Shown one piece after another: positions 1,349-64,000 of a DNA stretch of 64,000 bases (within the stretch, counting starts at the first letter, position 1; every line of letters begins with the position of its first letter). Origin of the DNA: Bilabrum cf. latius (taxonomy: Eukaryota). The position numbers were made by a program, and so were the translations under genes. The notes under the pieces are model-generated. The model searched no databases. It was not told where the DNA came from and saw only the letters and a list, made by a program, of their open reading frames with translations. The stretch spans positions 248,001 to 312,000 of the forward strand of contig OZ237763.1 of assembly GCA_965178125.1 (NCBI GenBank). The letters are read 5' to 3'.

Positions 1349-3079
1349 ATGTCATCATCTAAGCATAGGATACCCGGATCAGTGCAATCGTAGCCATACT
1401 ACCCATCGAGTGCGTACATGGGGTGAGATACTTGTTTATAGCGCAGCACCGAGGCCTTGCTATATCAACTGCAATCACCGCAAGGCAAGCATCAGCCCGT
1501 GCGCCTCGCAATATTTTGCAGGGATGACTTCCTTGGAACTCCCAAAGCAATTTCAAAGGCTGCTGAAACGGAAGCGCGCACCGACGTAGTAGCTCCAACT
1601 TTGCCGGGATCTGCCGCTGCGCAACTGCAACCGGGTGGCGAACGAGGCGCAGACTCAGCATGTAGAGCCAGTCCTAGCACTCCTGGGGATATCAAATCAA
1701 ATAATGGCATAGATGGCAGCGCTCCCAGCTCTGGAGCCGGTGCCGGAGAGAGCAGCAATGGTAGCACAGGAGCAAGCACTGCGGCCGGGCTATCGGGCTC
1801 AGCCGCGACCAAGACGGGGAGCAAGCCCGGATCGCCCAAAAGAGCAAGAAAATCGAAGGGACTACCCGGTAGCGCATCCAGCAGCCGGTCCGGTTCACCC
1901 GCGGAGGAAGCCTCCTTCGCCCCAGGCTCCGCCAAGCGCGGCCACTTTGCTCGCATGCTTGCCTCCCCTAGCGTGGACCAGAAGGCCCTCAGGGAGAAAG
2001 CATGGGCGGGCATCCCCGAGGAACAGCGCCCCGAGGTGTGGCGCCTCCTGCTGGGCCTCGCTCCTGCACGATCGGACCGCAGGGCAGGCGCCATGAAGCG
2101 GCTCAGATAGGAGTACGTCACCTGCCGCAGAAGGTACTACGGGTCCTCCAGCGCACACATGGCGGCGGGCCGCAGCGACGCGGAGGCCGCGCAGCTGCGG
2201 CAGGTACTCGTGGACGTGCCGCGGACTGGCCCCTCCGTTCCCTTGTTCCGGTCTAGCATGGTGCAGCGGGCGCTGGAGCAGGTGCTTTTCACGTACGGGA
2301 TGAGGCACCCGGCGACAGGCTACGTGCAGGGCATGAATGATGTGGCGATGCCGTTCTTCGCGGTCTTCTACGGGCAGGCGCTCAGGGAGGCGGGCCGTCC
2401 AGATGCATTCCATTGCAGCGCAGACGACCCGGACAAGCACATTCCCAAGGCCAGGGCGCTGCAGGCCGAGTCTGATTGCTACTGGTGCCTATGCGCGATG
2501 CTGGAAGGCTTTGTGGATCTCTTCACAGAAGGGCAGCCGGGCCTCCAGAAGCTGGTGGCGCAGCTGAGGGAGCTGGGGAAGCGGATCGACGGTCCACTCG
2601 TCACACACGTGGAGGCCCAGGGAATCCGGCTGATGCAGGTGGCGAACCGCTGGATGAACTGCCTGCTGCTGCGTGAGATTCCACCCGCTGTGGCCCCAAG
2701 GCTCTTCGACACGTACATTGCGGAGGCTGCGTCGGAGGCGGCTGCGGCTGCTGGGGAGGACGAGGAGGAGGCAGCGAGTGGGGGTGCTGGAGGTCGGGTG
2801 GGTGGTGTGGATGGCGGGTCAAGCGGGAGCTTCCGTGCACTGCACGTGTACGTGTGCGCCGCGCTGCTGGTGCGGTGGAAAGACAGGCTGGCGGGGCAGC
2901 GGATGGACGTTCTGATGAAGTTTTTCCAGGCGCTTCCCACCAAAGATTGGGGAGAGAAAGAGGTGGAGGAGCTGCTCGCGCAGGCCTACATCTACAAGGT
3001 GACGTTCGGGGCCACGGAGGCGCATTTCCGGGAGGAAGGTGGCTCTGCGGCTGCGAGCGGGAAACAGGGGCCGTCCTAA
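1349..3079 (+). CDS. TBC-domain Rab GTPase-activating protein (TBC1D22/Gyp1-like); intron 1423-1521; in-frame TAG at 1391 and 2108
   Basis: Motifs LREKAWAGIP..RPEVWRLLLG, VLVDVPRT, GYVQGMND, ESDCYWC and RWMNCLLLRE. ORFs 1457-2110 and 2159-3079 share a frame and are joined only by TAG (KRLR[TAG]EY) inside the TBC domain. Stop TAA. Confidence 0.9.
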
Positions 3080-3469
3080 CGGAGAACCTCGGTGGCAGTA
3101 AGTTCTATGTTATTGTAATCAACCAATAGATGCATTCATTGCACGTATGACGGGTTGTGGCTTCACACAGCGCGCATTGTGGTACCAGAGCGTGACCTTC
3201 AGCGGTGCCGAGACTTTTTTGTAGCGTGCTGCTTGGGGCACTGCATTCAAGATTTTCGCGGGCAGGTCGGAACGGGACGATCTTGACCATTGCACGCGGT
3301 TACTACGGTATACGTTCACTTCTGCGGAGAAAACCCGCTAACATAGTATCTGTGCACTAGCTAGTAGCCAGTGAAGTTGCGGTTTCGCACTTTGCACTGA
3401 TTTCTTTGACGAGCTCGGGCGAGAACAGCCCTTTCTTCAGCCAATTCCCTGCCTAGATAATAACCATCC

Positions 3470-6400
3470 ATGTCCGGCATAACTGACGTAGATGTTACAT
3501 TTGGCTCGGTGCTTGGCCCTCGAACGTTTAAGAGAGCTGCTGCGCGGACTCTGAACGGCGGCAGCGGCAGCAATACCTCCTGGTTGTGGCTCAGCAAGTA
3601 GACTGCAAGGGATGAAATTGCCGAGATCAGCCTTTTGTACGACGACGAGGCACCACCAGCAGGATGGGAGAAAGTTGATAAGGATATTACTAAGGGTGCT
3701 GTGGAAGGAAAGCCGGTATACATTGCAGTTCGGCGAAAGGCTGACGGCGAGGATGCACCGCCGCTTGTTGACATTGCCATTCAGCATGAAGCAGAGGCCT
3801 GCTCAGGTGAGAATTTTGCACATGGTTATTCAGCTACCGTGTGTTTTATACTGGGTATGTTGTGACAGCGCTGCCCAGCCTGATGGCAGCGTTCCGACCT
3901 TGTTTTGTCGCAAAGATCTGGGCTAGTCCCAAGATCGCGCGCGACTGAGCCACACTGCGCTGGCAAGCGCCCGGTGTTCTACGGGATGCCTCAAGTTAAT
4001 TGAATTAGCTTATACTAGACGGTGTTTTTTTTCTTGGCTTCCTTCTTGCAACGCTACGCTGGCGTGTTCCAAAGTAGCCACAATTTCATCTCGCAACTTT
4101 TCCTGGTTCTTTGCGCACTTGCTGATCAATGCAGACGGGTACAATGTGCTGGAGCGGTCTGCTAGCCGGGAAGGTGCCCCCTTGATGGTGAAGCTCGCCG
4201 TCCGCCATCGCCAGCCCGGCGACGTCCCCGAGTTCCCGGGCGACGTGCTCAAGGTGGGCGACGGCTGCGACGTGAGGTACAAGGGGGAGTGGTTCAAGGG
4301 CCACGTGACCAAGGTCGCTAAGTTTCACGTGTGCGCCAAAAGGGACGGGTTCGAGACGTACCCCGAGATCGAGCTCCTCAGGCGGTCCGAGGACCTGGCA
4401 GCCTTCGACACCAAGACGGAGGGGCGCGACACCCGTGGCGTTGTCAAGCAGGGAGAGGCATTCGAGATCAACGCAGAGACGCTGGACGCGATGGAAGAGC
4501 AGATCGATGCCATCATCCGCGGGAAGATGACCCTGAAAGCGGCCCACAACTTCGCCAAGCAGCAGCTGGCGCCGTACCTCGAGAAGGCCCTCTCGTCCTT
4601 CGTGGCCGAGGAGCACCAGGAGAGGGTGTACGAGTTCACGCAGGCCACTCTGCGCCTGTGCGTGTACTTCTTGGCGAGGCCCGAGCCGCTGCATCCCTCT
4701 ATCCGGCAGCAGCTGGTGCGCATCTTCCTCGGCGACAGGCGGTGCAGCTTCTTCTTCAACCAGAAGCAGCACGGGATCTACGGGAGCGCCCCTGAGGCCA
4801 AGCACTACTTGGGCGATACTGCTAAATTTCCCAACAGCGGTGCCAGCAAGTACTTCATCGGCAACGTGAACTACTTCGGCAAGATCGGCGGATACCAGGT
4901 CCTGGCTCGACGGTTCGACAGCAGCACCGGCTTTCAGGTGCCCATCGAAGAGCTGAAGGGCATGGTGGGCTCGGTGATCAAGGTCCCATTCCGCGTGTAC
5001 ACTGAGTAGTTCGCCAAGGACTTGTTTCCGAGGCTGTACATGGCCGTGTTGAACCGGTTGCTTCGGATGAGCACCAAGGAGCTGAGGGCCAACCCGAGGG
5101 AGGTTGCCATCAAGGACGTGCTGCAGCCCATGAACACCGTGTACTTCGCCATCAAGCTGACCTCTGCGCAGGGCAGGGGTGGCTTCCACGGGTACGGCGA
5201 GGTGCTGCCCCGCCCGCACATCGAGATCGTGGAGGAGTGGAGTACCACCATGGCACTGAGGCAGCTTCGTGCGGAGCCCATGGGCATCCGTCTGGAGGGC
5301 ATGCAGAACCTCGTCGAAATCGTGCAGTAGACCAGGCGCAGGGAAGGCAGGCTGCCCACCACGGAGAGCAGGTGGAGCGCGCGGCAGTACCGCAACGTTC
5401 AGGCGAGGCTCGCAGTCGCGGACTACTGGACGGGCCCAACCCTCGCCAAGTGGATCAAGGAGGCCGGTGTGGTCAAGGCCCTGCTGGGCAAGGCCGAGGA
5501 CGGTGATCTCTCGGGTGTCATCAGGTTTAGGGCCACCCCGGAGGAGGAGGGGCCGGACCGCCCCCTCCGCGCGTGCGTCACGCTCGTGGACCCCGAGGCG
5601 TCGCAGTTCATGATGGGGGAGGAGGAGGCCATCCGGGCGGCCAAGGAAGCCAAGGAGGCGGGGAAAGAGGGCCCTTCATCGGGGGCAGGTGCTGGTGGTG
5701 CTGCCAGCGGTGGCGACCAGCAGGAGATCGACCTGACCGTGGACGAGCCTCAGGCATTTGCCGTCGGCGGCAAGCCGGGATACTTCCTGTCCACGCACGC
5801 AAACCTTGCTACGCACGTGCCCGAGGTGCTCCTGATGCTGGCGGAGGAGAAAGAGCTCGGCGGCAACGAGGTGGAGATGCTGTGGGCCGCCAATCCGGGC
5901 TCGAATGACGAGGACCTTAGGAAGGCCATCTTCGAGGCGGTGCGCAGGGTGAGCGCCAAGCTGCCCAAGCGGCTGCAGAGCCACCTCTTCCGCAAGGTGG
6001 CCTCCACTCCTGCGGACCAGCTGGACCAGGTCACGATTGACCTGATCAAGCAGTTCACGGTGGCCACCCACTGCCCACCCGAGCCACCCGCGCCCAAGGC
6101 GAGCGACGAGCGCCCCGCGCCCGCGGACCCGGGCGCAGCCGCAGGCGGAGCCTAGGGTGTCAATGCCTCGGGCAATGATGCAGCTGAGCCTGCCGCCGAT
6201 GCAAAGGGCGAAGATGCGGAGGAAAAAGAAGAGGAGGAGGAGGTGGACGAGGCCACCAAGACGTCAGGCCTCAACTTGCTCTATGAAGTGTCTCTCGTCA
6301 ACCCACAGGGACTGCCCGACCAGAGCGTGCCCGAGGCGGCCCGCAAGGCACTCGTTGACCTGCTCATGGAGGCCCCGGGCTGCGAAGCGGGCGGCAATCT

Positions 6401-9400
6401 CGAGGCGCGCTCTGTGGAGTACATGGGCAGGGCCGTCCGCGGGATCAAGGAGGGCAAGAGCGTGCGTGAGTGCGTGCAGCTGGCGCAGGCCGTGCTGCAG
6501 GCGCTCTCCGACCGTGACGTGCGACTCGCGAATGACGCCACCGCTAAAGCCACCGGCGTGGCCGGCGCAGGCGAGTCCAAAGATAACGAGGATGACGTGG
6601 AAGAAATTGACGAGGAGGTCGGCGGCGGCGCAAACCCTGCCGCAGGTGCAGGCCCCGCGAGCGAGGGCAAGGAGGGGGAGAAGAAGGAAACCTCGCCCAA
6701 GGTGGAGCGAATGACCGCCGACAAGATGATCCAGTTGCTTTAGGAGAAGGAGGAGCTGCTGAATGTGATCATCGGAGAGGTTCTGAGGTACAAGGAGCAC
6801 GCCGCCAAGCGGGCCGACTCGCTGGGCATCACACCCGCCTACCTCGTGACGCAAGCCGGGGTGGGGGCCGCCAGCGGCGCTGGGACCGAGGGCGGCGAGG
6901 AGGAAGAGGATGATGATGATGATGACCCGGTCGCCCAGGAGGCTCGCGCCGCCAAGGAGAGGCGCGATAACGCGGTGACCGAGAAGAAGGTGAGCGGCAC
7001 CAGACAGCCGCACTCTTCGGAGATCGAGAGCAGGCTCAAGTTCCTGAGCTTCGTGCTGACCAAGAGCAGCTCCACCTCGCTGGACATCGTGACATTTGAC
7101 AAGCTGTGGCAGGGTCTTGCGGTGCACTTCCTGACACCAGGGGAGCGGAGCGCGTTCTTCGGCTGGCTGAAGAAGACGCAGTTCGAGTCTGTGGGCAGCG
7201 CCGGCGCCCTGCTGTCCGAGGAGGAGGCAAAGGAGGTCTTCGAGAAGAGGCTGTGCAGCGACGAGGCCATGGGCTTCCAGAGGCTCACCCTGGACGTGTT
7301 CCGGTGCTTCGAGTCCTTCTTCACGTTCATCAACGGCAAGGCGGGCAAGCTGTCCTCCAGCGACCCCATGGACGACCAGGTCGGCACCAGGGACGTGGAG
7401 CTGACCGGCATCGACGCTCTGTGGAGCATCCTGGCACAGGTGAGAGAGATTGCTTGCGCGTATTCCCGCGCGTTTCGCTTGAACAGCCATGCCTGGACCC
7501 CTGTGGGACCAGTTGTATTGTTTTGTCTTGCCATCGCCACACTGCCTCACACTCGCAGGTCAAGAGCAAGGAGGTCCGGAACGCAGTGCAGGAGCGGATC
7601 GTGGGTACCTACCTGCGGATCGATACATCCACAGGCCTCACCAAGCAAAAGGCTTGGGAGTCGTTCGTCGCCAAGGTCATGGGCAAGGCCAAGGCACTAC
7701 TCGCCGACGTCAAGTGAGTTATGCTAGCATTGTTGCTATTGGGTAGTCTTGTTGCTATTGGGTAGTTTCGGTCGCTAAGGTTGGTATTGTATACTGTAGA
7801 TTTGCCTTCGCGACCATTGTCGTTTTGGTACAGTCCGTACCAACAAGCAGGAGTGATCTCGGTTGGTCGCCGAGTGCGGGCTTCAAACCCGTAGACGCCT
7901 TGCCGCGTAGGGGTTCAATTCCCCCTCACCTGCGCGCTTTTTGCACTAGATTTTTGTATACCGCCCCTTGATCTGCTACATGAGCACTTGTGTGTGTTGT
8001 GACTGGTTTAGAAGCTCTTGTAGACTTCCTTTTGGGGTAGAATCGCCGCTGATTGTCGGCCAGCTGACACGTTGTACTTTTGGTCTTCTTCTTCAAATTT
8101 GGTTATCCCGGCCCTCGGTCGTTGGACCGGCTGCCGACCTTTGCTTTCAACACCTAATGCATTGCACCAATTCAAGATGTATCTATCTTTCCATCTCAAT
8201 CGCAGGGCACGAGGCGTGAAGGCCACGCAGTTCACGACTCTGCGCGAGCTGAGCGTGCTGGCCGCCACGCTGAGGGCCTTCTCGGACCAGGTCGAGACGA
8301 CTGGCCGCAAGGCGCAGGACGACAAGTACAACATCCTCATCGAGGTGCACGTCACGGACGAGAACGATCCACGCGAGACCAAGGGCCGCTGCGTCCGCAC
8401 TCTCTACTACGAGATGAACAAGTATGCCACCCTGGGTGAGCTCCGCGAGAGGATCGCTCGCAGGCTGGGATTCCCCGCCTCGCACATCTACATGGAGAAC
8501 TACAGGCACCAGTACTACAACTCCTGGGAGAACGAGGGCAACGAGGTGCACGATTTCTGGGCGCACAAGGGTATCTACACCATGGCCTGCCACGATGCCA
8601 AGTTCCGGTCACAGGGCCACGACGACGAGCCGCACCGGTTCGCGCCCGACCTCATGCAGAATGACGAGGAGGCTTGCACGAGGATGTACCCCATGATGCT
8701 CATCATGAACAACGACGAGTACTTTAGCACCGTGCGAGAGCTCTTGGAGCTTCCGTTCGAGCCTGCCGACGAGCAGTACGACATCTTCCAGACCATCTGG
8801 GACCTCACCCAGGCTGTGCCCGCCAGGTACGGCACTCGCAAGGCGGTGTGCTCGCTGTAGGGAGCCGTGGCTTCGCCCATCCGCCTGCCTGCCGCCGTGC
8901 TGGAGGAGGAGGACGCCAGCGCGCTGGTGAAGAAGTACGGCTTTGCGGAGGAGGGCGAGGAGGAGCAGCCGGGAGCTCCCAACTGGGACGACCTGCTGCC
9001 GCTCGACAGCCCCGGCACCCTCCTGTACAACCTGACCCTGCTGCAGCGAGTGGCCATGCCCGTGCGTCCCTGGTGGGAGACGGACGAGAAGGGCAAGGAG
9101 AAGCGCGAGAAGCACCGTGAGGACAAGATGAAGCGCATGGAGAAGGAGCAGGAGGAGGCGAAGAAGAAGGCCGAGGAGGCCGCCGCCGCTGCCGCCGCTG
9201 ACCCCGCCTCGGAAGACGGCAAGAAGGAGGAGGGCGAGGAGGAGGCCACTGCTCCCGTGGACATTGTGGGCCGCCCGCTGACCAAGGACGAGGAGCGTGA
9301 GGAGGGCAACAGGAAGGGCAAGCAGACCGTCGAGCTGCCCATCGCCAAGCAGCTGGAGCTCGAGCAGCAGGAGGCGGACCAGCGCAAGGCGTGGATGGAG

Positions 9401-12400
9401 GCGTTTGTGGCCAAGGGGGGGATCAAGCACCTGGCGCGCGGCGTGCTGGGCGGAGGCATCAACCTGCAGAAGATGTACGCGTGCCCCGCTGGCAAGGCCG
9501 CCATGGTGGCAGCCCTGAAGCTCCTGAACTTCTTCCTGCTAGGCACCGCCGCGAAGCTCGACGGTCTAGAGTCGGAGAAGGTGCTGGCACCAGCCGGTGC
9601 CGCTAGCGGAGCGGGCGCGAGCGCGGGCGGCGCCGCTGCCGATGCTGCGGCAGCCCCTCAGCTGTGCATGTACGACGCTGACGTGGAGACGGCCTCCATG
9701 GTGGCTCGTGCGGTGGAGCTCATCGGCGAGGCAGCCAAGGCCGCCACCGAGTCGAGGAAGAAGCAGGAGAGGCTGGAGGCTGCGGCCGCTGCCGCCAAGG
9801 ACGACGACGACGAGGAGGGAGGAAACAAGAAGCAGGATGCCCAGGGCAACATGCAGAAGCCCTCGGAGAACGCCATGAAGCAGCGGACAGACCCCGAGGA
9901 GGAGGCCAAGGGCGTGGCGGGCAGCCTCGCTGTCGAGAGCCAGGCCGTGTCGGAGTGCTCCAAGCTTCTGCGTTCCACCGTGACTGCTGACCCGGCGTCC
10001 CTCAAGGCGCTGTACGACACCCCCTCTGCCCAGGAGTCCATCGTGCAGTCGCTTCTGGCCACAAGGGAGCGCGCCGTGCGAGCAGAGGTGCAGCGCGTGC
10101 TCTCGTCGATGGCGGTGCAGCTGCAAGACCCCAGCAAGATGCCCGAGGGCCTGCCCCGCCCCAACGAGTTCTTCGCCAAGGCGCTGGCAGAGAGCATCGA
10201 CGAGGTGTACGGCAACCCGGACGGGTGCCTCGAGTTCTTCAGGGTGCTTGGCACCTGCCTGAGGGCGGATACGGAGGTACCCGCGAAGGAGAAGGATGCC
10301 TCGGAGGGTGGCAAGAAGGAGGAAAAGGAGGGCGAGAAAAAGGAAGGGCAGGACGAACCGAAGAAGGTCCCGCCCCCACCGCCTTCCGTCATCGACACGG
10401 CCCCCCCGAGGCAGCCCAAGGAGGGTATCCCAGAGCTCATGTTCGACGCCGGGGCGCTGGCGGACAAGCTGGTCGGATACATCCGGGAGCACCCGATCGT
10501 GGAGGTCAGCGCGGAGGACTTCGACCTCGTACTCCGCGGTTTCCTGCGGACCCTGCATGCTCTGGTGGAGCGAGTGCCCTCGCTGGCTGCCAAGCTCGGC
10601 GTGAGCGGCGACGGCGGTCGCAGCATCGTGGACTTCGTGTATGAGGAGGGCCTGTTCCACCAGGAGGAGCACGAGAAGGTTGGTGCGGATCCCTCCAAGG
10701 CTCCCGAGCCGGAGGATGAGAAGCAGGTGAAGCTGCCTCTCTGCAAGAGCAAGCACACCCGCGAGGCAGCCATGAGGTTCCTCAGCGCTGTCGCCGACCG
10801 GCACGAGCCCACCGCGGCGCACCTCTGCGCGCTCGTGTCCATGCACCACTCCCCCGAGGCAGCTGCCCTGGCCAAGCCGGCCCCCAAGAAGCAGGGCCGC
10901 TCCATGTACTACCGCTTCGAGGACATGGCCAAGAGCTCCACGGGGTACGTGGGCCTGGTGAACCAGGGGTGCACTTGCTACATGAACGCGTCCATGCAGC
11001 AGCTGTTCATGATGCCCAAGTTCAGGCAGGGCATCCTCGCTGCCGTGGACAAGACAAAGGAGCACCCCGAGAAGCGTCAAGAAGACTTCATGTGGCAGTG
11101 CAAGCTCATATTCGCCCACCTGCAGGAGAGCAGCAAGAAGGCGTATGATACTGCCCAGTACTGCAAGTCCTTCAAGGATTGGGACGGGAACCCCGTCAAC
11201 CCCGTGGAGCAGAGGGACGCCTCGGAGTACCTGGGCGAGCTCATCCAGAAGATCGAGTCCGAGGTGAGCGGCACCAAGAGCGAGGCGTTCCTTAAGGACA
11301 CGCTGGAGGGCATGACGGCTCGCGAGCAGGTCGCCGAGGGGGGCAAGTACTACAGGGTGGTGAAGGAGCCCTTCTACTTTTTGCAGGTGAGGTGCGAGGG
11401 GGTGAGCACACTGGACCAGGCCCTGCAGAGGTACTGCCGCGGCGAGATGATGTCAAACAAGAAGTGGACGGATGATGACGACAAGCTCATCGGCAACTTC
11501 GACACGATGATGCGCCCGTCCCTGCGGAACCTGCCGCCCCACCTCTTCATCTCTCTGTCCAGGTACAAGACGGACTGGGCGCGTGGAGGTGCCACCGTCA
11601 AGATCAACTCGTACCTCGAATTCCCCGAGCGTATCAACTTCTTCAAGTACACGATGCAGGGCCGGCCGGACGCCGTAGTGGGCCGCGGCGAGACTCACCG
11701 CGTGCAGACCCCCGAGGAGTACGACGCCATGGACCCCTCCAAGATCGCCGAGACCTGCAACGAGTTCGCGGACCCCTGCGGGCCGGAAGAGTACGAGTAC
11801 GAGCTGGTGGGCATGGTGGTGCACACTGGTGGCGCCAACAGCGGCCACTACTTCTCGTACATCCAGGAGCGCGGTCCCGAGGGCGGCACCGGCCGCTGGA
11901 TGGAGTTCAACGACGCTTACGTGTCGACTTGGGACCCCAAGCGCATGAAAGAGGACTGCTTCGGGGGAGAGGAGGAGTACAGGGGGCGCGGATTCTACGA
12001 GAACGTCAACGTGAACGGGCAGTACGTGAGGCGCTACCGCGAGGGCGAGGTGTACCGCCGCACCCGCTACCAGAACGCCTTCTTGGTCGTCTACGACAAG
12101 GTCCCTGCCGAGAGGTACCTCCGCGAGCAGAAGGCCAAGCGAGGGGCGGCCGCCGCTGCCGCCGCGGTCGCGGCTGCGAGCGGTGCCGGCGATGCTTCCG
12201 AGGGCGAGAAGGACACCTCCCAGCTGAGCCTGGTAGAGCGGTTTAAGCTGTAGGTGGAGAAGAAGCAGCAGCAGCAGAGCTCCTCGCTGCAGATGTCCAG
12301 GGCCAAGGTGCCCCCGGAACTGCTAGGCAACATCGCCTCGGACAACCGGTCGTTCTGGCGCAAGAGGAACGTGCTCAACGCCGAGTACTTTGACTTCATG

Positions 12401-24020: not shown

Positions 24021-24279
24021 AGGCGAACCAACGAAGCTAACGACCTTGTACCTAATAGATTGTACAACTACTCGATCGGCCGGATCGTCTTATAGACCAC
24101 CGCTTCGCCGCAGGTACAGACGATGTGACGACGACAGGATGGTTGTCATTGGCCAGGTTGTGCGTTCCGATTTGACGGAAACATCTGAAGAACCTGGGCA
24201 GATATGTTTGTGAATCCACAAGGCGTAGCATCCATGCGACTAGCAAGACAGACAGTCCCCGCACGCCGCACACCAGGGA

Positions 24280-41053: not shown

Positions 41054-41527
41054 TTAATTGCTTTGAACGGCGGTGGAAGGTTTGAACTGTGCATGCTAGT
41101 CTGCCTAAAGGATTCAATTCGGAGTTGGTGTGATTAGAAAGTGAGAAAGTATCGAAATCGTTCCTATCAGGCTGTCGCGCTACCAAGTACGTTGAATTTG
41201 AGCCTAAATATGTGTTCTACGTACAGCACTAGACAGCTTTGGTTGGATATTGAAATATGAGCTGGATCGGAAACTCCCATCATCTGCAGCTGTGGCGCAG
41301 TACTACTTCGTGGGATGGACAGATCTTCCCAAACAGCAGGGTAGATCAAACCGTGATATATTTAACTGCTGTACATGCGTTGTTATACCATTAAGCCACC
41401 ACATCGTGCTTTATAGTTTTTTCTGTCTGTGTGGCGGAACTTCGTGTTTGCGCGGCGACACTCGGCGCACCGTGACTGCGGCCGAGAGGCGCCCACCCAC
41501 CCTCACTCGAACCAGATCGATTAGAAT

Positions 41528-46863: not shown

Positions 46864-46965
46864 CGCTGGAATAGTGAGATCCCGGCAACGTCAACATTAT
46901 TCTTATTGGCACGCTACATAGAAATTGTGGGTTGCGTCGCAATAAATAAAGACGGCTACAGAAGC

Positions 46966-49401: not shown

Positions 49402-49541
49402 CGTTTAATTAGTATTGATGCACATTTAAATTGGGTCCACTGTGGTATCCAGCGTGCCTGTGTCTGCTCGCCGACCGCACAACTTGAAGTCAATTTTGCT
49501 CCGAATCATGGAATTGGGGGCCGACAATTTGCGCACTGTGT

Positions 49542-52500: not shown

Positions 52501-53072
52501 GCAAGGCCAAGTGGGCGCAGGCGCGCCTGCTGGCACTGGCTGCGGACATGCGCGATTTGGCCGCGGTCTCTCATAGGGTTAGGGGGGCAGGAGATGGTGG
52601 CGATCCGGTGGTCGGCGGGGGTGCAAGCGCTGCGTCTGCTGCCGACGATGGCAAGGCGCCCGCTGAGGAGGCAGCAGAAGTCACAGACGAGGAAGACGAA
52701 CCGGAGATGCGTTTGCTGGATGCCAAGCAGAGGCTCGGCCTGCTGCCAATGAAGGAAGAGGACAGGCTCGCGAAGGCAAGCCACGACGAGCGCCGCACGC
52801 TGCTTGACCACGCCCTCAAGCACGTCCTCCGAAAGCACCTCAGGATTTGGTGCCTTGCGGCCCACTGGGAGTGCGACAAGGCATGGCAGATGCGACCACT
52901 GGTGAACGGCAAGGAGCTCATGAAGATGGGCGCTCCACCCCGCGAGGGGATGCGGCAGCTGATGCAGGAGCAGACGGACTGGCAGCTGGTTCGCCCCCGT
53001 GCCACCAAGGAGGAGTGCGTAGCATTCTTGCAGGAACGGATCGCGGCAATGACTGCTGGCAAGTCCTAGTAA
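49542..53072 (+). CDS. CCA1: tRNA CCA nucleotidyltransferase (class II) with N-terminal presequence-like extension and large low-complexity insertion; 7 in-frame TAGs
   Basis: RVAGGWVRDKLLGR[TAG]NHDIDIAID, IDFVNLRAEEY..SRIP, EDADRRDFTVNALFYN, LLDDPLRVMRAVRF, KVSKERVG and C-terminal RPLVNGKEL. TAGs at 49593, 50223, 50931, 51762, 51777, 51870 and 53067. Stop TAA 53070-53072. Confidence 0.92.
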
Positions 53073-53297: not shown

Positions 53298-56200
53298 TCA
53301 CCTCCTGGTCAGCCTCCCACGGCCTCGGCCACGTCCCCTACCCCTGCTTGACCTTCCGCTGGCTCGGCCGAAGGCACCACCCCCGCCAACGATGGTGCCC
53401 GCACCACCCCGCCCCTGACTCTCTGCAGACGCGCTTGACTCCGCACTACTGCTTCTAGGCGGCATGGGGATGTGTTCACCAGCGGCTGAGCGGCCACGGG
53501 CACCCGCAGCTGCCATCGGGTTTGTGAATGGCTCCCCATCATCAGTGGCGGCGGGTGCGGCAGGGTACTGCGGTGCCAGCGTCACTTCTCTTCCTGCTAT
53601 GCTGGCCGTTCCGAACACGCCCCGCTCTTCCTCAGCCGCATTGCCAATCGACCGCCCCCTTTGCAACGGGTTGGCCACGGCCGATCCGAATGCGCTGCCA
53701 CCGCTCCGACCCGCATCACGAGCACGACCCGACTCCCCGGCTCGCTGGATGGACCGAAGCCGCGCAGGCGATAGCAGCGGGTTGCTGCTCGCAGCCTCGG
53801 CGACGTCGTGAATGCTCTCGCTCGAGTGCTCATCGATGGAGCCAAGGATTGGCCGGCCTCCTCGCCTGCCCGCTTGTGACACGACAACCTGCCCATCTGA
53901 CGGCCCCTGGAGCCGAAGGCCTCGACCCTGCCTTGCCTTCGATTCCAGACGTCTCCGCTGGTCAGGAGTCATCGCGGCTAGCACGTGCGCCGGCAGCGAC
54001 TCGCCCTCGCTTTCGCTCGAGCCCTGATTTGCCATGCGCATCATGCGCATCATGCCGCCATGGCCACCGCCCATGCCTCCCATCTCCAGCGCATCACCAG
54101 GCATGGCATGCTCCTCCTCGAGCCCTTCCGCCTTTCGTCTCGCCGCCAAAATGGCACTGGCACGGCCTGCTTCACCATCGGAAGCAGCGTCATCGCTCCC
54201 GGTCGAGATGCTCCTGCGCTTGCCCTCGCCGCTCGCCAGCCTCTGCCTCCTGGCCGCCTCCTTTCTCTCCTTGGCCTGCAGAGCCAAGTGGCGGACCAGC
54301 CCGGCGCTGGCTCCGGTGAGTGGCAGGGACGAGGCCGGCGCTTCGCCTCCATTGCCGCCCTCGCTCCCTTGAGAGCTCTGGCTGCCATTCGAGGTCGATC
54401 TTGACCTGGGCTTGCGAGCTCCAGCCACGCCCAGTAACCTCGCGGCGCGAGCCCCGCCAGCGATGCTTCTGAACCCGTCGAGTGGGTTGGCCTGTGACAC
54501 TTTCCCTGGGCTGTCCTTCCTGCTCAAGGCTGGAGCACCGCGGCCCGGATGGCTAGATGCGGCCTAGGACAGGCCGAGGAGCGGGTTCACGCCGGCGGCC
54601 TCGTCGATAGGACGCATGGCTGCGTTTTGGTTAGCGGCAGCTCGGATCAGGGAGCTCCGGCCGCCGCTTCCGTCTCCATCTCGATCGGCACCCGAGGCGT
54701 CGCCGCTGCCCAAAGTCATTGGATTGGCACCTGCGGTCAGGTTGGCAATCCTCTGCTTTCGAATCTCTTCTGCCTCTTTCTTGGCGGCGCGGGCTGCCCT
54801 CGCCTGTTCCTTCCGTCTTGCCCTCGCTGCAAGCGCCAGCCCGCTGACAGCCTCACCGGCTTCCATCGAGAACTCGTCTGAGCCCTTCTTGTCTCCCGTT
54901 CCATCATTACCATCTTGGTTGTCGTCTGGCGAGGCCACGCAAGGGCACAGGAAGGCGCAGTGACCAGCGCTGTAGGCTGCGCAAGCACCAAGCAAAGCAA
55001 CATACAGCGCAGTCAGCACAGCAGCTGCCACTGGAGCCAGGTTCAGCACCAGCACAGTGTACCCAAAGCCCCCACGAGCGTTGGAGTCCACGCCATCGTC
55101 ATACGCGAGGAGCCCGAGCAGCACAGACGTCGCCTGCACAAGCAGGCAGGACAGCTCCAGCCCGTTCAGCCACTTTGTGACGTATGGCCGTGTGAGTGCC
55201 TGCGCGATCACGGAGCAGCTAAGCACACCGAGGAGGCCGTAAGCCTGCACTCGAGTGCCGGCGCCTGCCAGCGCAGCAGTCGAGATCGACATGATGGCCT
55301 GCCGAACGAGCAGCAGGGGCGCCCACCAGGCGTACTTCTTGACGCGCATGCCTGCCAACCACGCACCCCACCAAAGGGGCCAGGGAGCGTCGGGGTCGTC
55401 GCCGTCCTGAAGCAGTTCACCGTCCGGCCTCACGTGGGTGTAGCGGGTGCCGCATCCCTCCGGTGGGGAGCAGGTCCTGCGCCAGCAGCCCTTCCTCTGA
55501 TGCCTGCCCGAGCCAGCGCGGGCCGACGATTCCCAGCAGCAGCAGTCGCAGTCGCACAAGGGTTTTGTCCCGCACCAACCTGGTTGCGCCTGGTCTCCCG
55601 CTCGTTTGACAGCCTCCCGCTCTCGCTGCTCCCTCTCCCTTTTGGCCCTCCTTCGAGCCAGCTCCGCTTTCATGACATCACCAGGACGGGCCATCATCAC
55701 CTGCCCGCCCACCCTGGTGGCAGTGGCCCCCGCAGACTTGCCAGCACCAGGCGCGCAGCACAGTGGCCTGGCCTGCTGGGCCTCGCGTCCGATGCCTGAC
55801 GTGCACCGGTACAGACGAGCTAGGAGCGGGAAGTTCTGCGGGAGTGACAGCAGCATGGCAGCTGGCAGTGCCACCAGCAGCAGGAGCAGGAGCGGCCCAG
55901 CGAAGCCAACCTGCAGGCCCACCACGGCGGGCGCGTCGCACCGCGCGCCGAGATCAAACAAGAGCACCTGGATGGTGAGACTGTCACCACCACCGGAATC
56001 AGAAGTCATTCCAACCGTATCGTTACCACCTGTACTCGCACGCAGAGAGCCAGGACTATCGCTGGCAGCAGAGGCGCTGTCATCGGGCGGAGTCACGCTG
56101 CCAAGGCCTTGCATGTACACGCCCTGTGGGCCCACAGAGACGCATAGCAGCGACAGCACCAGCGTGTCAGCCATGGGCGCGCACCACACGCACACCGCAA

Positions 56201-59200
56201 TGGCAACAGCAGCCACGAGGCCCGTCCATCCCCTTGGTCCAAGGAAACGCGGTGGCACCGACCCATCCATCCCAGGCCGCGCAACCACCTTCTCACGCCC
56301 GCGCCTGCCGGCGCCCTCACCAGGTTCACCATCGCTTCCCTCCTCGTCGGAGCTCCACAGGAGGTCAGGCGGGAGCCCGTCCTCCTGCGGCCTCGCCGCA
56401 ACGGCAGCATCCATGGCCAGCGGGTTCTGCGCCGTTTGTCTCGCTCTGGCTGCCATCCTGCTAATCCCGTGCCTGCCGGTGGCTGCGCCTGCAGCCAGCC
56501 TCCGGGGGGCCGGCTGCGCAACGGCGGACCGTCCAGCGCCGTTCTACGCCATCTGTCCCTGCATTGCTGCTCGCAGCGGGTTGCTGGCACTGCCGTTCTG
56601 TGCACCAGACAGCGCCTGCCGCTGCATGCCCAGCCTTGAAGGGAACGCAGCCCCGTCGTCATCCTCATCGCTGTCTCGATCCAGCGCCATCCCGCCCTGG
56701 AGGCCGTCCGACTGCCCATGCAGCACATCGTCGTCATCAATGGCAGCAAATCGAGGCCCCTGTCTCTACCCAGAGCGGCCAGGCAGTCGTCTGGCGTTCT
56801 GGGATCTCTCCCTGCGCACGAGGTCAGCGGCCCTTCCAAGCTCCCCCGCGTCCAGCAGGTCAGCAGCAGCGCGATCGTTGAGCTTCTTCTTGCGCATGCG
56901 GTCCCGGTTGTGGATTTGCTTGGCAAGCTCTGCATCCTTCTCGATCTCCTCCTCCATGCTACCGTCCACATCGGCGGCCATGGCCCGGATTTCAGCGCTG
57001 CTCAGCGGCGGTGGGTTTAGCAGCATCTCGAGGCAGGGCACCCGCTTGAAGCACCACCGCAGCATGTAACGGGAGAGGGGAGCAAGTAGCGCCACGGCCA
57101 TAACCAGTAGAGTGGCAGCCACAACTGGCAGCAGGACAGGAGACTCTGCCAGCGAGTTGGGATTACCTGGCACCGGGCCGGGGTCTGGCAGAGCCTCAGC
57201 GTCGCCTGCCAGGACAGACGCAGCGCAGCGCACCGATGCCACCTGCGGCCAGGGATTGGACACTGCGTCCGCGGCCAGGAACAGCCCAAGCACCGCATTC
57301 GGCCAGCCCAGGTCCACTCGGCTAAGGAGCGCAAGCACCTGCAGGTGCCAGAAAATCACGATGGATGCCCGAGCCCAGTGGCCCGCCCGACCTTCTGGGT
57401 GCATGTTCTCGACCGCTGCGGTGTACGCCTTGGAGCGCCTCCTCCTCGCAGCAGCCAATGGGCTCTCGGAGGCTGAGCCCTTAATTGCAGCGCTCTATCC
57501 CTCATCGCCGTCCGCGCGCGTGGAGGGCTGAGCCTTGGAGTCCGCGCCTGGCGTGCCGGGAGCTAGGGCGCGACCTCCCATGCCGACATCGTCCTCGGCC
57601 TCGGAGTCGCTATCATCCAGCCCAAAGTGCGCGTTCACAAAATCACCCTTCTTCTTTGGACCCACCTTGCCATCCCCGCGCCAGGACTGTGCCATGAGGG
57701 CTAGCGACAGGCGTGGCGCACGCCTCCCGCCGGCACCAGGTGCGTCTGTACTTTCCGCGGAATTTGATGAGCTCGGGTTATCCAGCTCCTCCTCGTCGCT
57801 CTCCTGCATCTAGTGGCACAAATCGCACCCTGACAGCCAAAACATGAAGCCCTTCGGCCGCACCCCCCGCCTGGGCCTCGCCCTGTACTAGGAGGGCCTC
57901 ACGCCGTACACCACGCGATCCACGCTCCAGCCCGCGAACACCCACACGATCACGGCACCGAGAAGCGCCACGAGCAGAGAGAGGACCCACACGCCGGGGC
58001 TAGGGCACTACTCGCACGCAAACACGCCGTCTCGTGTCCAGCCCTGCACGCACCCGGTGCACAGGACACCCCCGTGCCCATCCACGCATCGCTCCATGGA
58101 TGCAGGGTTGAGGCTGCTCAACGCATCGTCTCCTTCCGTGTAGAACTTGATCGGCGGCAGCTCCGGTGGACTGCGCGACGACGACAAATTCGTGCCACTC
58201 GTCTGAAGATGTCGACCATGACGGTAATGGCGTTGTGCGTGAGAAGCTGAGCCAAGCAGCCGGCTGGCTCCCGCGTCAGACACTGCAGTCGATTCCGCCA
58301 GTTGGCTGCTGCTGCCCTCCCCGCGCCCCTGCGATCCGATGCAATTGTCGGGTATGGGACAGGGCGCGAATACGAGCGTGTCCGAAGAGGCCCATGGCAG
58401 CCTCCAGAATCCCGACTGGGCCGTCACGTTCCCGGCAGCGAGACCCGCGCAGTCCGCGCCCCTTGGGCAGTCTAGGCATACGACCTCAGAGGCAGTCTCC
58501 GGGTCCGACTCGTCGAATGCCTCTGTCGAAAGGTACTGGAACGGGGGGCAGGCAGCCACGGCAGCACGGGACGACACTGAGGAGGGTCCGAAACCGCCCG
58601 CGTTCCGTGCTCGGACTGCCACGACCAGCGGGTCGTCAGACACGGCAAGGGGCAGTCTCGCAGACAGCCGCTCCCACGGGCCCCCTTCGACTTGGTCGGT
58701 TTCCTGTTCTCCTACCCGGGCCACCTGCAGCAAATCACCGTACCCAACGAGGGATGCAGCAAGCGCTGACGATGCCTGCAGCCCTCTCGTCTCGGCTGCC
58801 ACGCGAGATGCTGGAAGCGTGAGCCAGCCGTGATCAGGCGCTCGTGGGATCTCAGCCGCACTGGCATCCTAGTTGGCCGGCACGCTCGAGTTGGAAGTGC
58901 CAGATGCGTCCCAAACGGTCGCCGAAACAGGGTCTCCATGGAACAGCCACACGCCTGCATCTGAGATCATGAGGCCCTCATCCAACTCAGGGCGGTGCTC
59001 GCTGGTATCTGAGGCAGCCCAAGCATCCGCCAGTCGCCTGGCGTCGCTGTAGCGAGCCCAGGCAAGGTCAAAGCCGGTGGCAGGGCCTGTCTCCTCTGTG
59101 CCTTCCCTGATCCACAGCGGCAGGTGCCACTACACAGACAGCCGGCTGGCATCACCGGTAACCCGGTCCGTCTAAAGCTCCTGCGGCCGGACCCTTGGGC

Positions 59201-62200
59201 GTCCTGTTTGCGCGAATTCGAACAGGGAGTTAGCCGGGGACACTGCCAAGGCACGCGTCCGCACCGTCACGGATTTGGGCCCCCTGCGGGATGCAACACC
59301 GCCGGGAGGATTTGGCACCTCGCACCCTGCGGAATTGCCGCCCTCATAGATGAAGCGGGCGCACGGAAACCCGCCCACTGAGATGCCTACGATGTCCTGG
59401 GCGGCGCGACCAAAGCCAATCCCGACCACGGAAAGCATCTCGCCAGGCAGAGCCACTCTGGGACGCACCTCCCGAACCACAGGAAAGGGCAGGGCATCCA
59501 GGAGAGCATTTTGCGCGGAGGATTGCTGCCCTACCGCCACTTGAACATTCCTGGATGGCCACCCGGCGGCTGGAATTACCCCCGAGCACGAGAGGACCTG
59601 GCCTATTGATTTTCCGGAGGACGCATTGCCCCTACGCAAAGACAGGTCTTCGCACTGGATGCCTCCCACCGAGGCGTCGTCAACGAGGCTTGCTTGGGTA
59701 CCAAAGTAGTTGCCAATGATGCGGAACGACTGCGGCACGGGCCCCGGCATGGCATACACAGGGTCAACATCTGTCACTTCGGGGGCAAAGTAGCTCCAGT
59801 GATCGTTCTCAGGGCTGAATATCCCATTGGTCATGTGGACCCTGATGTCAAGCCCAGCGCCAACACCCGGCGGTGCTATGCACTTGAGTTCGCCTTCTCG
59901 CGGCTTTGTGACGTTGACGCACTCAGCGCCACCGATTGTGATGTTTGCCACGTCACTGACTACCCTCCCAAAGTTAACCCCCGTGAGAACAACCTCGGTC
60001 CCACCGGCCGGATCACCCGAGGTAGGCAGGGAGAACTGCACTACTGGCAGTCCCGCGAAACCGAGGAGGTCCTATGAGTCGCATAGGTTTGCAGTGCACA
60101 AGCGCACCGTTGGCACGCGGAACTGCCTGGGATCCACTCCGACGCACACGACCCTCGTATTCGACAGCCACTCAATCGAGGAGCATGGTGCTGATCCAAC
60201 AGCCACATTGCTGACGTCGGCAAGTTTTGCGCCGAACCCAGTGCCGATGAGCGTGACGTTCACCGCTTCCAGATCTGGCAGCACCGTGATGAACGAGGGG
60301 TCGATGGACTGGATACTGGGTCGCTCAAAATCTACAACCGCCTGCCCAAAGTCACCCACCTCGCTGGCAGCCCCCTCGATGAGAACTGTGACCAGGTGAT
60401 TCCCGCCGATGCCCGGTGGAGACACGCAGGTGATGCGGTCGTCTCGCACCCTCGTGACATTGATGCACTCGTATGGCCCAAGAGAAACCTCGATCCTAAG
60501 ACCGTCCACGAAACCGAACCCAGCCCCCACCACGAGGAACTCAGCACCGCCTTGTTGAGGCAGTCCTGTCGGAGGAAATACTACATCCACCACTGGTGCA
60601 GTGTACCGCACCAGAGCCCGCTGGTTCTCGCGCGACCGCTGGCCACCAATATCCACCACGAGTGGAAGGTCTTCGCCGCCACCGGCCGGTGTAGAGATAC
60701 ATTCAACTGCAGTGTCGTTGTGCCGCACAATGGACGATCCTGTGCAGGCAAAGCCCCCTAGCAAGATCGAGGCGCCCGGGGCCGACTGGTCGGTTCCAAA
60801 ACCGCTTCCAAGTACCACCAGTCGCTCGCCACCTCCGGGGTACAAGACAGCCAGCGGCTCCAGCAATGTTGCGTTGCCAGTCGGCACGCTCCCGCGGGGA
60901 TGCACCTGGCTCTGGACGCCGCCACCAGCTGATCCACGTTCAAAGAACACAACGGAGTCTATCACGGGAGGAGCGTACGACACGACAGCCGGCAAAGACG
61001 GTGGTACTTGGGCGGCATCGGCGCCACCGACAATTGAGCCTGGAATAGCTAAGCCGGGCAGCACAGGCAGGCCCGGAATCACCCTGCTCTCCACCTGTGC
61101 ATCCGGCGCGAACAGATTGCGGCTCAGGGTGTCCATCGGCTCGCCTTCAAATGTGCTGTTCCATGACGAGCCCAAAACACCACAGGCTCTCACTTGCACC
61201 GCGAGATCGGCGCCACCACCACTTGGGGGCACGCACAGGGCTGCACGGTCACTGATCCACATTGTGCGAAGGCAGTCGCGGCCATTGATGGAGACCTGCA
61301 GGGCACTGCCACCATTGGAATCGCCAGGGCACGACATGGGTGGCACCCATCCGCCAGTTGTGACATTTTGGCTGGGTCCGTCGGACTGGCACGAGATCGC
61401 AGTACCGTTTGCTGAGGTATTGCAAGGACTTGTCCTTTCCTACCCGGCTTCCATGCTGATCTAACCGCCTGTACCAGCTGCATACGGGCTTGACAAATTC
61501 CAGGGGCCAAAGTTCATGCCTGAGACTAACAGCACGCCTGGTGCACGAATCGCAGCAAGATCAGGCGCTTGTGCGAGTGGCAGAGGTTCACCCTGGTCTT
61601 GAAGAGCAATGCCACCTGTGGACACCAGCCACGGCGAACCGCCTGTCTCTTGCCGTTGAGAATCCAGCCAAGACACGTAGGACACCGTCCCGTTGGCAGA
61701 TTGGTTCGCGGCACTACCGCTTGCCACAACCGCATCATCCCACAAGCCCTCGCACGCCGCAATGATCTCGCCCAGGTCAAGGCTGGCCAATGAATCGAGA
61801 AATGGCGGCGTGCACGATCGTACGGCGTGCACTTCTGGCGCAGCGTAAGCCAGGGCAGGCGGGTTGCTATCGACGATAGAAGAGCTCTAATCCCCAGCGA
61901 GCACGCTGATATGCCGGCCCTCTCCCACACCAGCAGGCGCGGCACAGTAGGCCACAGAATCGTTGAGCCTCACTGACTCTAGGCACTCTACCCCGGCAAT
62001 GCTGATCGTCACGTCGGGCTCGAATCCACCAGCACCAAAACCACGACCGGACACCACCAGTGGCAGTGGTCGCGGTCCATTCGGCGACGACGCATTGGTC
62101 CATCGCCAGCTCTGGGGCGGAGCCGTGACGTCAGCCACCACGGGCCACTCCCGTGACAGCAAGGGGGGCCACGGCAGCGGCTCAGATACCGGTAGAGGGA

Positions 62201-64000
62201 AGGCGCTGTCGCCAGGGGCGGCAAGGCTCTCGCTAGACATGCGCTCCTTCACGTGCGCATCCTAAGCACCTTCAAGGACACCTTCACTCGCTGGCTATCC
62301 GTGAAGCAGGCTCTCAACAGATGTCGCTAAACGCTGGCCACAGACCCGTACTTCTATCTCTGTGCCTGTGCCCAGCCCAGGGGGCACGTTGCACTCGATC
62401 ACAGCGTCAGACATGACTTCAAGATTCGAGCACAGCCTGCCTCCAATGCGCACTTCGACTGGATTTAGCATCCACGACGGCAGTACTGTGCTTGTGGCGG
62501 TGCTGTTTTCGTCCCGCACTGGATCAATGGCAAAGTCAGGGTATGCGAGCAAGCGAGCACCGCTTGCATCCACTGCAGGAAGCGGCAAACTGCCAATGGC
62601 ACCGGCAAACAGGTCTGATGCCCCCTGTGGCGAATACGCAAGCGAAGCGATCGAAGCCGCCGCAAGTGACCCAGCACACGCCGCCTCAGTGGGGCTAAGG
62701 TCAGTTGCTAGACGCCCGCTATCAGCCGATACATCTACTGCCCTCTATATCCTATCGAATGAGGCGGGGCCAAGGGCGAATCCGCGGCCGTATAGCCTGA
62801 GACGATTGCCTGGCGCAGTCGCGAAGAGTGAATCCACCGGTGATGCAGCCGGCGTGCTGCTATTGCCGCCGAACCGCAATTTTCGCACGGCGTGTACTTC
62901 CGGCAGTGCGGTGGAGAAGCCCCCAGGCCCCAGCAGGTCCCGCATGCTCGGTGAATGCAAGTCATTAAGCCAGTCAGCACTTATGACCGAAGAAGTCTGC
63001 TGCAGTAGCGCCGATACGTTCAGACCCAGCCCATTCTGAACGGACAAATTATTCAGCAGCTCCGCAGTGACCACGGGCAACGCACCACTCGTACCCCAAG
63101 TTGCAACATGCAGCAGATGATTGATCCCTTGCTGCTGCTGGAACAAACTTGCGTTACTATTCGCCAGGGATGCGAACTGAAGGATGGGTCTAGGTGCCGT
63201 GAGTGCGGACGCATCCCAGCCGTCAAACATACCTCTGTCCGCAAGGCGGGGAAGTGGCACCATAACGCCAACTGAAGGACTGCCGCGACTCGAGGCAGTT
63301 TCTGGTGAGCTCTGTACCGCGTACTACGAGTCCTGAACCGGGCTACGTGTCCGCTCATTCGTTTCTCGGGCTATTTGATCGTCGAACGAGGATGAACCTC
63401 CCACGGACACGGAAACCACGAGCGCTGATCCGGCGACATTCGGAGCTTCGCATCGAACCGAGGTGTCATTGACCCACACCGTTGCACGGCACTCAACACC
63501 ACCCACGTATGCCACGGGTCCGAGGTTGCTGCCGCCAAAGTCCTGCCCGTGGACTTCGATCCAGTATCTGTCGCTAGGATCGCTTCCGTCAGCGAATCGC
63601 ATGGGTTGGGGTGGGGCAGTCCAGGAAGTCACCTGGGGCGGGTTGACCTGAAGAGCAGCTTCCCTACCAGCCACTACTACCCCGAGAGATGCCATCCCAA
63701 TGCCGAGCATTTCTTCGAAGGAAGCATTGCTCAAGCCACGTCGATCAAGCAGCTCAGACCGAGCCAAAGCTTGGACTCTCGGATGAACCACGTGCCCACC
63801 CGAAGATGCAAGGGCAAACAAGCTGGCGTTGCTGATCAAGCGAAGCGGGTGGGCAGGAGGTGGCGCATCGAGGCGCAGCTGAATGCGCCCGTCGACCACC
63901 AACCCGACAGAAGCGCCAGCGACCGCAGGCACGGTGCACTGGGTGCTGATCGCCGCGATGCCGGTCCTAGCCGCGGATGGGGCCGTGAAGAGGTGGGACA
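53298..64000 (-). CDS. Giant membrane protein (over 3500 aa, 5' end outside window): multiple IPT/TIG domains, FN3, Cys-rich region, multi-TM domain and disordered tail; 18 in-frame TAGs
   Basis: Repeated G.NFG...V.IGG.EC......I.C..PPG.G units, FN3-like LSV[TAG]W..VRARNAGGFGPSS, CPRGADC..GFWR..C..GHGGVLC..C and TM motifs HLQVL..WP and RPY..LNGLEL. All minus-strand ORF pieces are in one frame, separated only by TAG. Stop TGA TGA. Confidence 0.85.

Follow-up and report, generated by a model that had tools for sequence, protein, structure and literature searches.

A probable reassignment of UAG to glutamine, with UGA and UAA as stops, in a 64-kb stretch of GC-rich eukaryotic DNA

Does every stop codon still mean stop in the 64-kb stretch of eukaryotic DNA analyzed here (the window; all positions are counted from its first letter)? 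It is virtually certain that TAG does not and that it serves as a sense codon in the genes of this window. The explanation that fits best is a reassignment of UAG from stop to sense in the nuclear DNA of a GC-rich, apparently non-ciliate microbial eukaryote, in which UAG would most probably be decoded as glutamine, with UGA (the main stop) and UAA still terminating translation. Such decoding would involve a tRNA with anticodon CUA, presumably derived from tRNA-Gln(CUG) and pairing with UAG and not with UAA, together with an eRF1 that would no longer recognize UAG. Taken as a whole, a code with UAG as glutamine and with TAA and TGA as stops is probable; on the premise that TAG is sense, its assignment to glutamine is likely.

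In-frame TAGs and termination

The evidence for TAG as a sense codon begins with the open reading frames (ORFs). When TAG is read as sense, the longest ORFs of the window span 3566, 2081, 1850, 1407, 1228, 1194, and 1156 aa, whereas no ORF exceeds 1134 aa when the standard code is used. Giving TAA a sense meaning does not lengthen the ORFs (1135 aa). The 16 stop-to-stop ORFs, with 17,276 codons, hold 91 in-frame TAGs and not a single in-frame TAA or TGA. Read in their two remaining frames (~34,500 codons), these ORFs contain 649 TGA, 67 TAA, and 211 TAG, such that TGA and TAA together (716) make up 2.1% of the out-of-frame codons and are absent in frame over up to 3566 codons. TAG, on the other hand, is similarly common in frame (0.53%) and out of frame (0.61%). 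Pfam domains continue across TAGs. In-frame UAA, the feature of a UAR = Gln code (table 6), is absent from the window ORFs, as is the combination of in-frame UGA and UAA that marks codes in which all three stops are translated.

Trimming the ORFs of heads and tails that look noncoding leaves ~80 TAGs—65 in 15,514 codons outside an array of tetratricopeptide repeats (TPRs) and 15 within that array—and the N-terminal (5') exons of an RGS gene and an ATPase gene add one extra TAG each, 2 in all. A previous sequence-only reading of this DNA had counted about 85 TAGs in frame and had seen neither TAA nor TGA there, and both statements agree with our counts. The five TAGs that it had singled out, in a CCA-adding enzyme (50223), a helicase core (48748), a TBC domain (2108), an RGS motif (16656), and an ATPase (18611), lie exactly where it had put them, and the sequence contexts that it had quoted are present in the translations (i.e., TAG before CAG CAG CAA, a QK-periodic run, CE-TAG-CP, and A-TAG-NG beside AQNG).

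Are these TAGs retained in transcripts? We compared contigs of four public runs from four studies (X1, X5, X7, and X8) with positions 44001-64000. X1 and X5, from two of the studies, contain long, DNA-like pieces identical to the window stretch; X1 may be the run from which the window sequence itself comes. The pieces of X7 and X8, from the two further studies, start and stop at gene borders: transcript-like pieces span 46889-49453 (helicase), 49544-53082 and 49553-53169 (CCA-adding enzyme), and 53213 onward (a gene for an IPT/TIG-repeat membrane protein), with a single X7 contig covering 53213-64000 on the minus strand. Depth differs between genes, and X7 and X8 agree in this pattern. Both runs also skip three introns that the DNA-like contigs keep, at 44034-44122 (plus strand), 46344-46442 (minus strand), and 46468-46577 (minus strand); these are 89, 99, and 110 nt long and have GT..AG ends, read as CT..AC on the minus strand. 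We call X7 and X8 RNA because of these spliced joints and the gene-bounded contigs. The five genes here have 31 in-frame TAGs, every one of which is covered by X7 pieces, without any listed difference from the DNA. Introns are thus skipped and TAGs kept, which excludes editing, splicing-out, and systematic assembly error for the 44- to 64-kb part; these were the artifacts that the sequence-only reading had proposed to check, and the TAGs persist in spliced, gene-bounded contigs. Weighing on the other side, that X7 and X8 are RNA is an automatic guess, none of the runs listed as containing this sequence is recorded as RNA, X7 is marked "probably DNA," and one differing letter, which is unlisted, occurs in the 2565-nt X7 helicase piece.

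Which codons, then, terminate translation? The 16 ORFs end in TGA (11) or TAA (5), and the TAA that ends the first ORF of a ubiquitin-specific protease (USP) gene is probably intronic. The sequence-only reading had stated that no gene ends in TAG; this is true, but partly by construction, because the ORFs are defined by TAA and TGA. The ends were tested separately by means of an in-frame codon-usage score, computed after the last TAG and after the stop in 14 TAG-bearing genes. After the last TAG, the score is positive in 11 of the 14, weakly so in the helicase gene and in the gene at 22755-24089; the tails of the other three are only 0-18 codons long and too short to judge. None of the 14 scored genes loses its coding signal at a TAG. 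After the TGA or TAA stop, by contrast, the score is negative in 14 of 14, and GC content at third codon positions drops from 0.65-0.85 to 0.38-0.62; four genes end in TAA, with the coding signal falling beyond it. Transcript-like contigs end 10-130 nt past the TGA or TAA of five genes (10-97 nt past the TAA of the CCA-adding enzyme gene and 13-130 nt past the stop of four TGA genes). From the drop in signal and the contig ends we conclude that TGA and TAA terminate: TGA is the main stop, and TAA also terminates. The claim of TAG as sense with TAA and TGA as stops is thereby borne out by ORF structure, by domains that run across TAG, by the transcript-like contigs, and by coding signal past the last TAG.

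Two other accounts of the in-frame TAGs have to be set against this reading. In an ambiguous code, UAG would be mostly translated and would serve as a position-dependent stop in some genes; stop codons are position-dependent in Condylostoma and in karyorelict ciliates. We regard such a code as unlikely here. It draws on the finding, which counts against UAG as purely sense, that 4 of the 16 ORFs carry a TAG within 20 codons of the stop, making occasional UAG termination possible. These TAGs lie 1, 5, 17, and 19 codons before TAA or TGA, in four ORFs where ~1.6 would be expected (an estimate from TAG density); the tail is unscorably short in three of the four ORFs, and in the CCA-adding enzyme gene the TAG is followed at once by TAA. 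Yet coding signal stops at TAG in no gene, 11 of the 14 tails still score as coding, and TAG is not depleted near gene ends, contrary to what a position-dependent stop predicts; moreover, TAA and TGA are never in frame, so dedicated stops exist. That the TAGs are untranslated, through assembly or sequencing error, RNA editing, hidden introns, or pseudogenes, has next to no probability. Nothing was found in favor of this account, apart from the fact that the two decisive runs are taken for RNA on an automatic guess. The contigs of the four studies match base by base; the transcript-like sets drop real introns yet keep the 31 TAGs of five genes; the frame is kept across 91 TAGs without TAA or TGA; relatives are interrupted at the same codons; and essential, single-copy enzymes are among the genes affected.

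The amino acid specified by UAG

Which amino acid does UAG specify? The sequence-only reading had favored glutamine and had pointed to TAGs in conserved cores; its case is weakest at this point, for homologues at those sites carry mostly E, D, K, or S. The CCA column at 50223 (119 homologues) reads E47 D32 T6 Q6 S5 N5 A5 plus others, and a relative with 88% identity has D opposite the TAG. At the RGS site (16656), E stands in five of five printed Protein Data Bank (PDB) alignments, which represent two proteins, RGS10 and RGS17. PDB alignments give K, K, E, K, and D at the TBC site (2108) and E, E, and K at the helicase core site (48748). The ATPase column at 18611 (115 homologues) is S71 A21 Q15 T3 E2 K2 C1. 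All of these columns speak against glutamine. Further columns are mixed or lean differently. Four TAGs were tested in the USP gene (5007-5009, 5328-5330, 6153-6155, and 6741-6743): the first has K in the nearest relative and a mixed column, the column at 5328 is likewise mixed, and at 6741 the nearest relative has Q, which is also the commonest residue among 20 homologues (Q7 E5). In the IPT/TIG gene, the TAG at 61461-61463 faces L in a relative with 87% identity; the repeats of that gene, compared for the meaning of TAG, are too divergent to inform. Altogether, the residues found opposite TAG are Q, E, K, L, S, Y, and, once, D, and all but D are one-step mutational neighbors of TAG. The alignment signal therefore partly shows where TAG codons arose and not what they mean.

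Paralogous repeats give a closer comparison. The TPR array (~36691-38832, plus strand) consists of 17 units of 42 residues and contains 15 of the 21 TAGs of its gene; we compared the 17 units codon by codon. TAGs fall on CAG columns at positions 11, 20, 38, 13, and 40 of the unit and also on an AAG column (position 37), a GAG column (position 1), and a Leu column (position 17), the single TAGs on the GAG (Glu) and Leu columns being at odds with glutamine. Column 11 holds 9 CAG, 4 TAG, 1 TAC, and others, and its TAGs reflect at least two separate events. Three of the units have TAGs in common by descent.

Hand tallies of the aligned residues in the manner of BLOSUM did not separate glutamine from glutamate. 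Tests calibrated by resampling took their place. The column test sums log-odds over five TAG sites with 20-119 homologues each, and yields 4.5 for Q, 2.4 for E, 2.4 for S, -0.3 for A, and -3.2 or less for all others. For calibration, five true sites per residue were resampled from the same alignments in 1000 draws; the true residue ranks first in 80-99% of draws. A deficit as large as that observed has P = 0.014 for Glu, P = 0.082 for Ser, P = 0.008 for Ala, and P < 0.001 for Lys, Leu, Asp, Arg, Thr, and Gly.

The second test uses the residues next to TAG. In the window proteins, residues are enriched next to themselves (Q 1.66-fold, E 1.72, K 1.84, and S 1.42); among TAG neighbors, Q is enriched 1.63-fold and E is not (0.95). 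A naive-Bayes version of this comparison, calibrated by resampling true codons, places Gln first on the 76 untrimmed sites. On the 65 trimmed sites Ser and Gln lead, and Glu has P = 0.003-0.01 at spans 2-5. The test also rejects Lys, Leu, Tyr, and Trp, with P = 0.000-0.04 for Leu on the trimmed set and P = 0.08 on the untrimmed 76. Glutamine alone is accepted by both calibrated tests, and it is also favored by the TPR paralogues. The glutamine assignment of the sequence-only reading is accordingly the best-supported one, on the strength of these tests and the paralogues; what it does not have behind it is the conserved-core columns, which are mostly non-Q. Several features of the tests themselves also tell against it. 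The column test rests on five sites, and the RGS, TBC, and helicase sites, with PDB alignments only, fall outside it and lean toward Glu or Lys. The neighbor test is unable to split Gln from Ser, leaves both Gln (P = 0.11) and Glu (P = 0.10) standing at span 1, and may in part pick up a tendency of TAG to occur in disordered, low-complexity segments.

How do other residues fare as the meaning of UAG? That UAG is sense and specifies glutamate is, in our estimate, quite unlikely, even with E or D in 79 of the 119 sequences of the CCA column and E in all printed RGS alignments, two of three for the helicase, and one of five for TBC. Glutamate is further favored by the one TPR TAG on the GAG column, which is conserved in 12 of 17 units, and ties with serine for second place in the column test. 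Five true Glu sites, however, trail the leader as far as observed in only 1.4% of draws, Q outnumbers E by 15 to 2 among the 115 sequences of the ATPase column, and the TPR TAGs pair mainly with CAG. The neighbors of TAG point the same way, with E at 0.95 where 1.72 would be expected of a Glu codon and with the low P values at spans 2-5. Some other residue, such as serine or leucine, is decidedly unlikely. Serine accounts for 71 of 115 residues in the ATPase column, comes first or ties with Gln in the trimmed neighbor test, and escapes rejection in the column test (P = 0.08), yet it is seldom or never found at the RGS, TBC, helicase, and CCA sites or in the Q-type TPR columns. Leucine has the L at 61461-61463 in the 87% relative and the one TPR TAG on a Leu column; TAG opposite a conserved Leu, the feature of a UAG = Leu code, is thus confined to two sites that align with L, and leucine fails the column test (P < 0.001) and the trimmed neighbor test. 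Lys, Tyr, and Trp are likewise rejected by the calibrated tests. Glutamine therefore stands as the likely meaning of UAG.

Relatives, lineage and known codes

Is the in-frame UAG confined to one organism? In the protein collection that we searched, the window's own genes are already present in TAG-truncated form; three such fragments of the IPT/TIG protein end at TAG codons 417, 567, and 1308. Fragments from relatives, with 87-94% identity to the same protein, end exactly at its TAG codons 703, 852, and 1608 (61887-61889, 61440-61442, and 59172-59174), and the 88% CCA relative stops mid-protein, within one residue of a window TAG. Since these fragments end at window TAGs, we infer that in-frame UAG is common to the relatives, whose codons at these points would be TAG. 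For the USP gene there are more distant fragments, with 55-72% identity. One same-organism product differs from the rest: protein P0001 (261 aa), from the CCA locus at ~50040-50830, reads Q at the TAG, whereas other products of the same organism are cut there. This Q probably reflects an alternative table used by the gene caller and is no evidence for glutamine; the contigs seem not all to have been gene-called with the same table.

The protein-collection matches include no close named relative. The CCA core matches a partial record labeled Symbiodinium sp. KB8 at 62-65% and plants, green algae, Aplanochytrium, Phytophthora, and fungi at ~50-56%. For the ATPase, the top match overall (41%) has no species name, and the best named ones, which like those of the CCA core are weak, are oomycetes at 37-39% and apicomplexans at 35-41% over partial lengths. 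A FastTree phylogeny of 48 ATPases puts the window protein in a supported clade of 11, the ten others being environmental; this clade adjoins a group that contains oomycetes and is separate from the apicomplexan ATP4 clade. Being a tree of one gene, it does not place the organism. The clade itself hints at a poorly sampled lineage.

The sequence-only reading had called the source non-ciliate. That description fits the 60% GC, the predominance of TGA among the stops, and the best named matches, all of which argue against a ciliate. Two candidate sources were rejected: Amoebophrya sp. ex Karlodinium, which unlike the window is AT-rich and which translates all three stops (PMC12005148), and Iotanema, whose primary stop is UAA (PMC5304391). 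We suggest tentatively, and as somewhat less than probable, that the window belongs to a clade of which several members, at 55-94% protein identity, have orthologous in-frame UAG in common, with a UAG-only change independent of Iotanema and of ciliates, 60% GC, and UGA as main stop.

How does the proposed code compare with codes already described? Many ciliates, hexamitin diplomonads, ulvophycean algae, and Amoeboaphelidium use table 6, in which UAR = Gln, and in Condylostoma and Blastocrithidia all three stops have been given a sense meaning. Like the window, these codes involve stop-to-sense changes through suppressor-type tRNAs; unlike them, the window never has TAA or TGA in frame and ends its genes with both. 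UAG is read as Glu in peritrich ciliates and Blastocrithidia. The loss of UAG as a stop is usually explained by AT pressure.

Codes in which UAG alone has changed are closer to the case at hand. UAA and UAG almost always change together, and UAG-only cases are few (Panek et al. 2017, PMC5304391; McGowan et al. 2024, PMC11687900). The fornicate Iotanema spirale has UAG = Gln with UAA and UGA as stops, UAA being primary, and the predicted mechanism is a tRNA-Gln(CUA) unable to read UAA (PMC5304391). It resembles the window in its UAG-only change, its UAA and UGA stops, its non-ciliate status, and the probable meaning Gln, and differs in its primary stop, given that TGA ends 11 of the 16 ORFs of the window and GC is 60%. 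Judging from gene content, a CLU-domain protein and a helicase with DDX28-like matches would make an anaerobic fornicate an unlikely source. Among ciliates, UAG = Gln is described for Protocruzia tuzeti and phyllopharyngean lineages (PMC11687900), and UAG-only changes in phyllopharyngeans lead to Gln and Leu (PMC11687900, PMC5304391). The code of Protocruzia and of phyllopharyngeans (NCBI table 15) is the same codon table as that of the window if glutamine is right. What sets the window apart from the UAG-only ciliates is its 60% GC, its arrangement of genes with spliceosomal introns over a contig of at least 64 kb, and its best named matches, which come from oomycetes, apicomplexans, plants, and a dinoflagellate record and not from ciliates.

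The same two sources describe UAG as Leu in the rhizarian exLh and as Ser in the green alga Scotinosphaera, and UAG as Glu with UAA as Lys in the ciliate PL0344 (PMC5304391, PMC11687900). Both exLh and Scotinosphaera are like the window in having UAG decoupled from UAA in a non-ciliate nuclear genome. The leucine of exLh is rejected for the window by the calibrated tests, and the serine of Scotinosphaera, with P = 0.08 and no formal rejection, fits the paralogue and conserved-site data poorly.

A search of full-text literature, with most subscription journals and supplements outside its reach, found no report of a UAG-only code in a GC-rich non-ciliate. If the lineage is unreported, the window represents a further UAG-only reassignment of a known type; UAG in mRNA and UAA and UGA as stops, its defining testable features, were both found. 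An independent, GC-rich, non-ciliate case would, if true, be a data point on how eRF1 loses UAG and keeps UAA, and would bear on whether AT mutation pressure is needed for such changes, since 60% GC with UGA as the main stop is the opposite of the usual AT-pressure scenario for UAG loss. There is a practical side as well: any annotation of this organism or its relatives made with the standard code is faulty, and the protein collection already has their genes as TAG-cut fragments.

Gene content of the window

The window has an overall GC content of 60% (56-65% across the 64 kb) and contains eukaryotic genes on both strands. At its left end lies a RabGAP-TBC gene of the Gyp1/TBC1D22 type (1427..3079, plus strand; Pfam PF00566, E = 7e-34), which ends in TAA and has an in-frame TAG within the TBC domain at 2108-2110, as located by the codon index of its ORF. 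It is followed by a USP9X/UBP24-like deubiquitinase (3555..14248, plus strand; Pfam PF25010 and PF00443) that ends in TGA and consists of two long ORFs at 3555-7778 and 8003-14248, with a probable intron between them; the second ORF holds TAGs beyond those tested. On the minus strand, an RGS + PH gene of at least two exons (15094..16784, from its ORFs and a PH domain match) ends in TGA and carries the TAG of its RGS helix motif at 16656-16658. An ENA/ATP4-like P-type ATPase (17869..22176, plus strand; from ORFs and Pfam) has several short 5' exons and one 3.4-kb exon and ends in TAA; its TAG lies at 18611-18613 (plus strand), and the best PDB match of the exon with this TAG is a non-SERCA Ca-ATPase.

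Two of the genes that follow belong to no known family: a membrane protein with 2 in-frame TAGs (22755..24089, minus strand) and a low-complexity protein with 13 (29530..32148, minus strand), both ending in TGA. Between them, a Tcp10_C (CENPJ/CPAP-type) gene identified by Pfam (25752..29438, plus strand) has 4 in-frame TAGs, one of which adjoins the CAG CAG CAA run, and also ends in TGA. The gene with the TPR array (33454..39006, plus strand) combines, by Pfam, a CLU domain with TPRs of the kinesin light chain (KLC) type, and its 21 in-frame TAGs precede a TAA end. A methyltransferase-like gene (39713..41053, minus strand) has 2 in-frame TAGs and ends in TGA, 5 codons after one of them. Cystathionine beta-synthase (41366..43474, plus strand; Pfam PALP + CBS), which ends in TGA, serves as a contrast, its last exon being the one ORF of the 16 without TAG. 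Two short membrane-protein genes, at 44113-45267 (plus strand) and 45437-46363 (minus strand), have one TAG each. Near the 5' end of the latter, a 25-nt micro-exon (46443-46467, minus strand) sits between two of the skipped introns; it shows up in the contigs of two runs through a pair of joints.

The right-hand part of the window starts with the DEAD-box helicase (46966..49404, minus strand), which ends in TGA and has 4 in-frame TAGs, one in the core (48748-48750) and three in the C-terminal tail. The CCA-adding enzyme, recognized by a PDB match, has long inserts (49488..53072, plus strand) and ends in TAA; its 7 in-frame TAGs include the core site at 50223-50225 and one at 53067-53069, directly before the TAA stop. 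At this ORF end (53067-53072, plus strand) the sequence cannot tell which of the two codons terminates. The IPT/TIG-repeat membrane protein (53298..63998, minus strand) exceeds 3566 aa, has 18 in-frame TAGs and a TGA end, and is open at the window end. Its gene runs for more than 10.7 kb without an intron, and the transcript-like contig over it is 16.6 kb long and extends beyond the window end.

The sole tRNA gene in the window is a tRNA-Sec with anticodon TCA (7847-7933, plus strand; Rfam RF01852, 67.7 bits), and a gene for eRF1 is not present within the 64 kb. The tRNA-Sec lies in the ~220-nt gap between the two USP9X-like ORFs, probably inside their intron, because the flanking ORF ends look noncoding. 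Its presence implies that the organism uses selenocysteine, and some UGAs may therefore be Sec codons. In the TPR array, the C-terminal units are near-identical at the DNA level and free of TAG, and the TAGs of the array are found in its older, N-terminal units, with the two outside them sitting in the degenerate last unit. Part of the array looks as if it had been homogenized recently.

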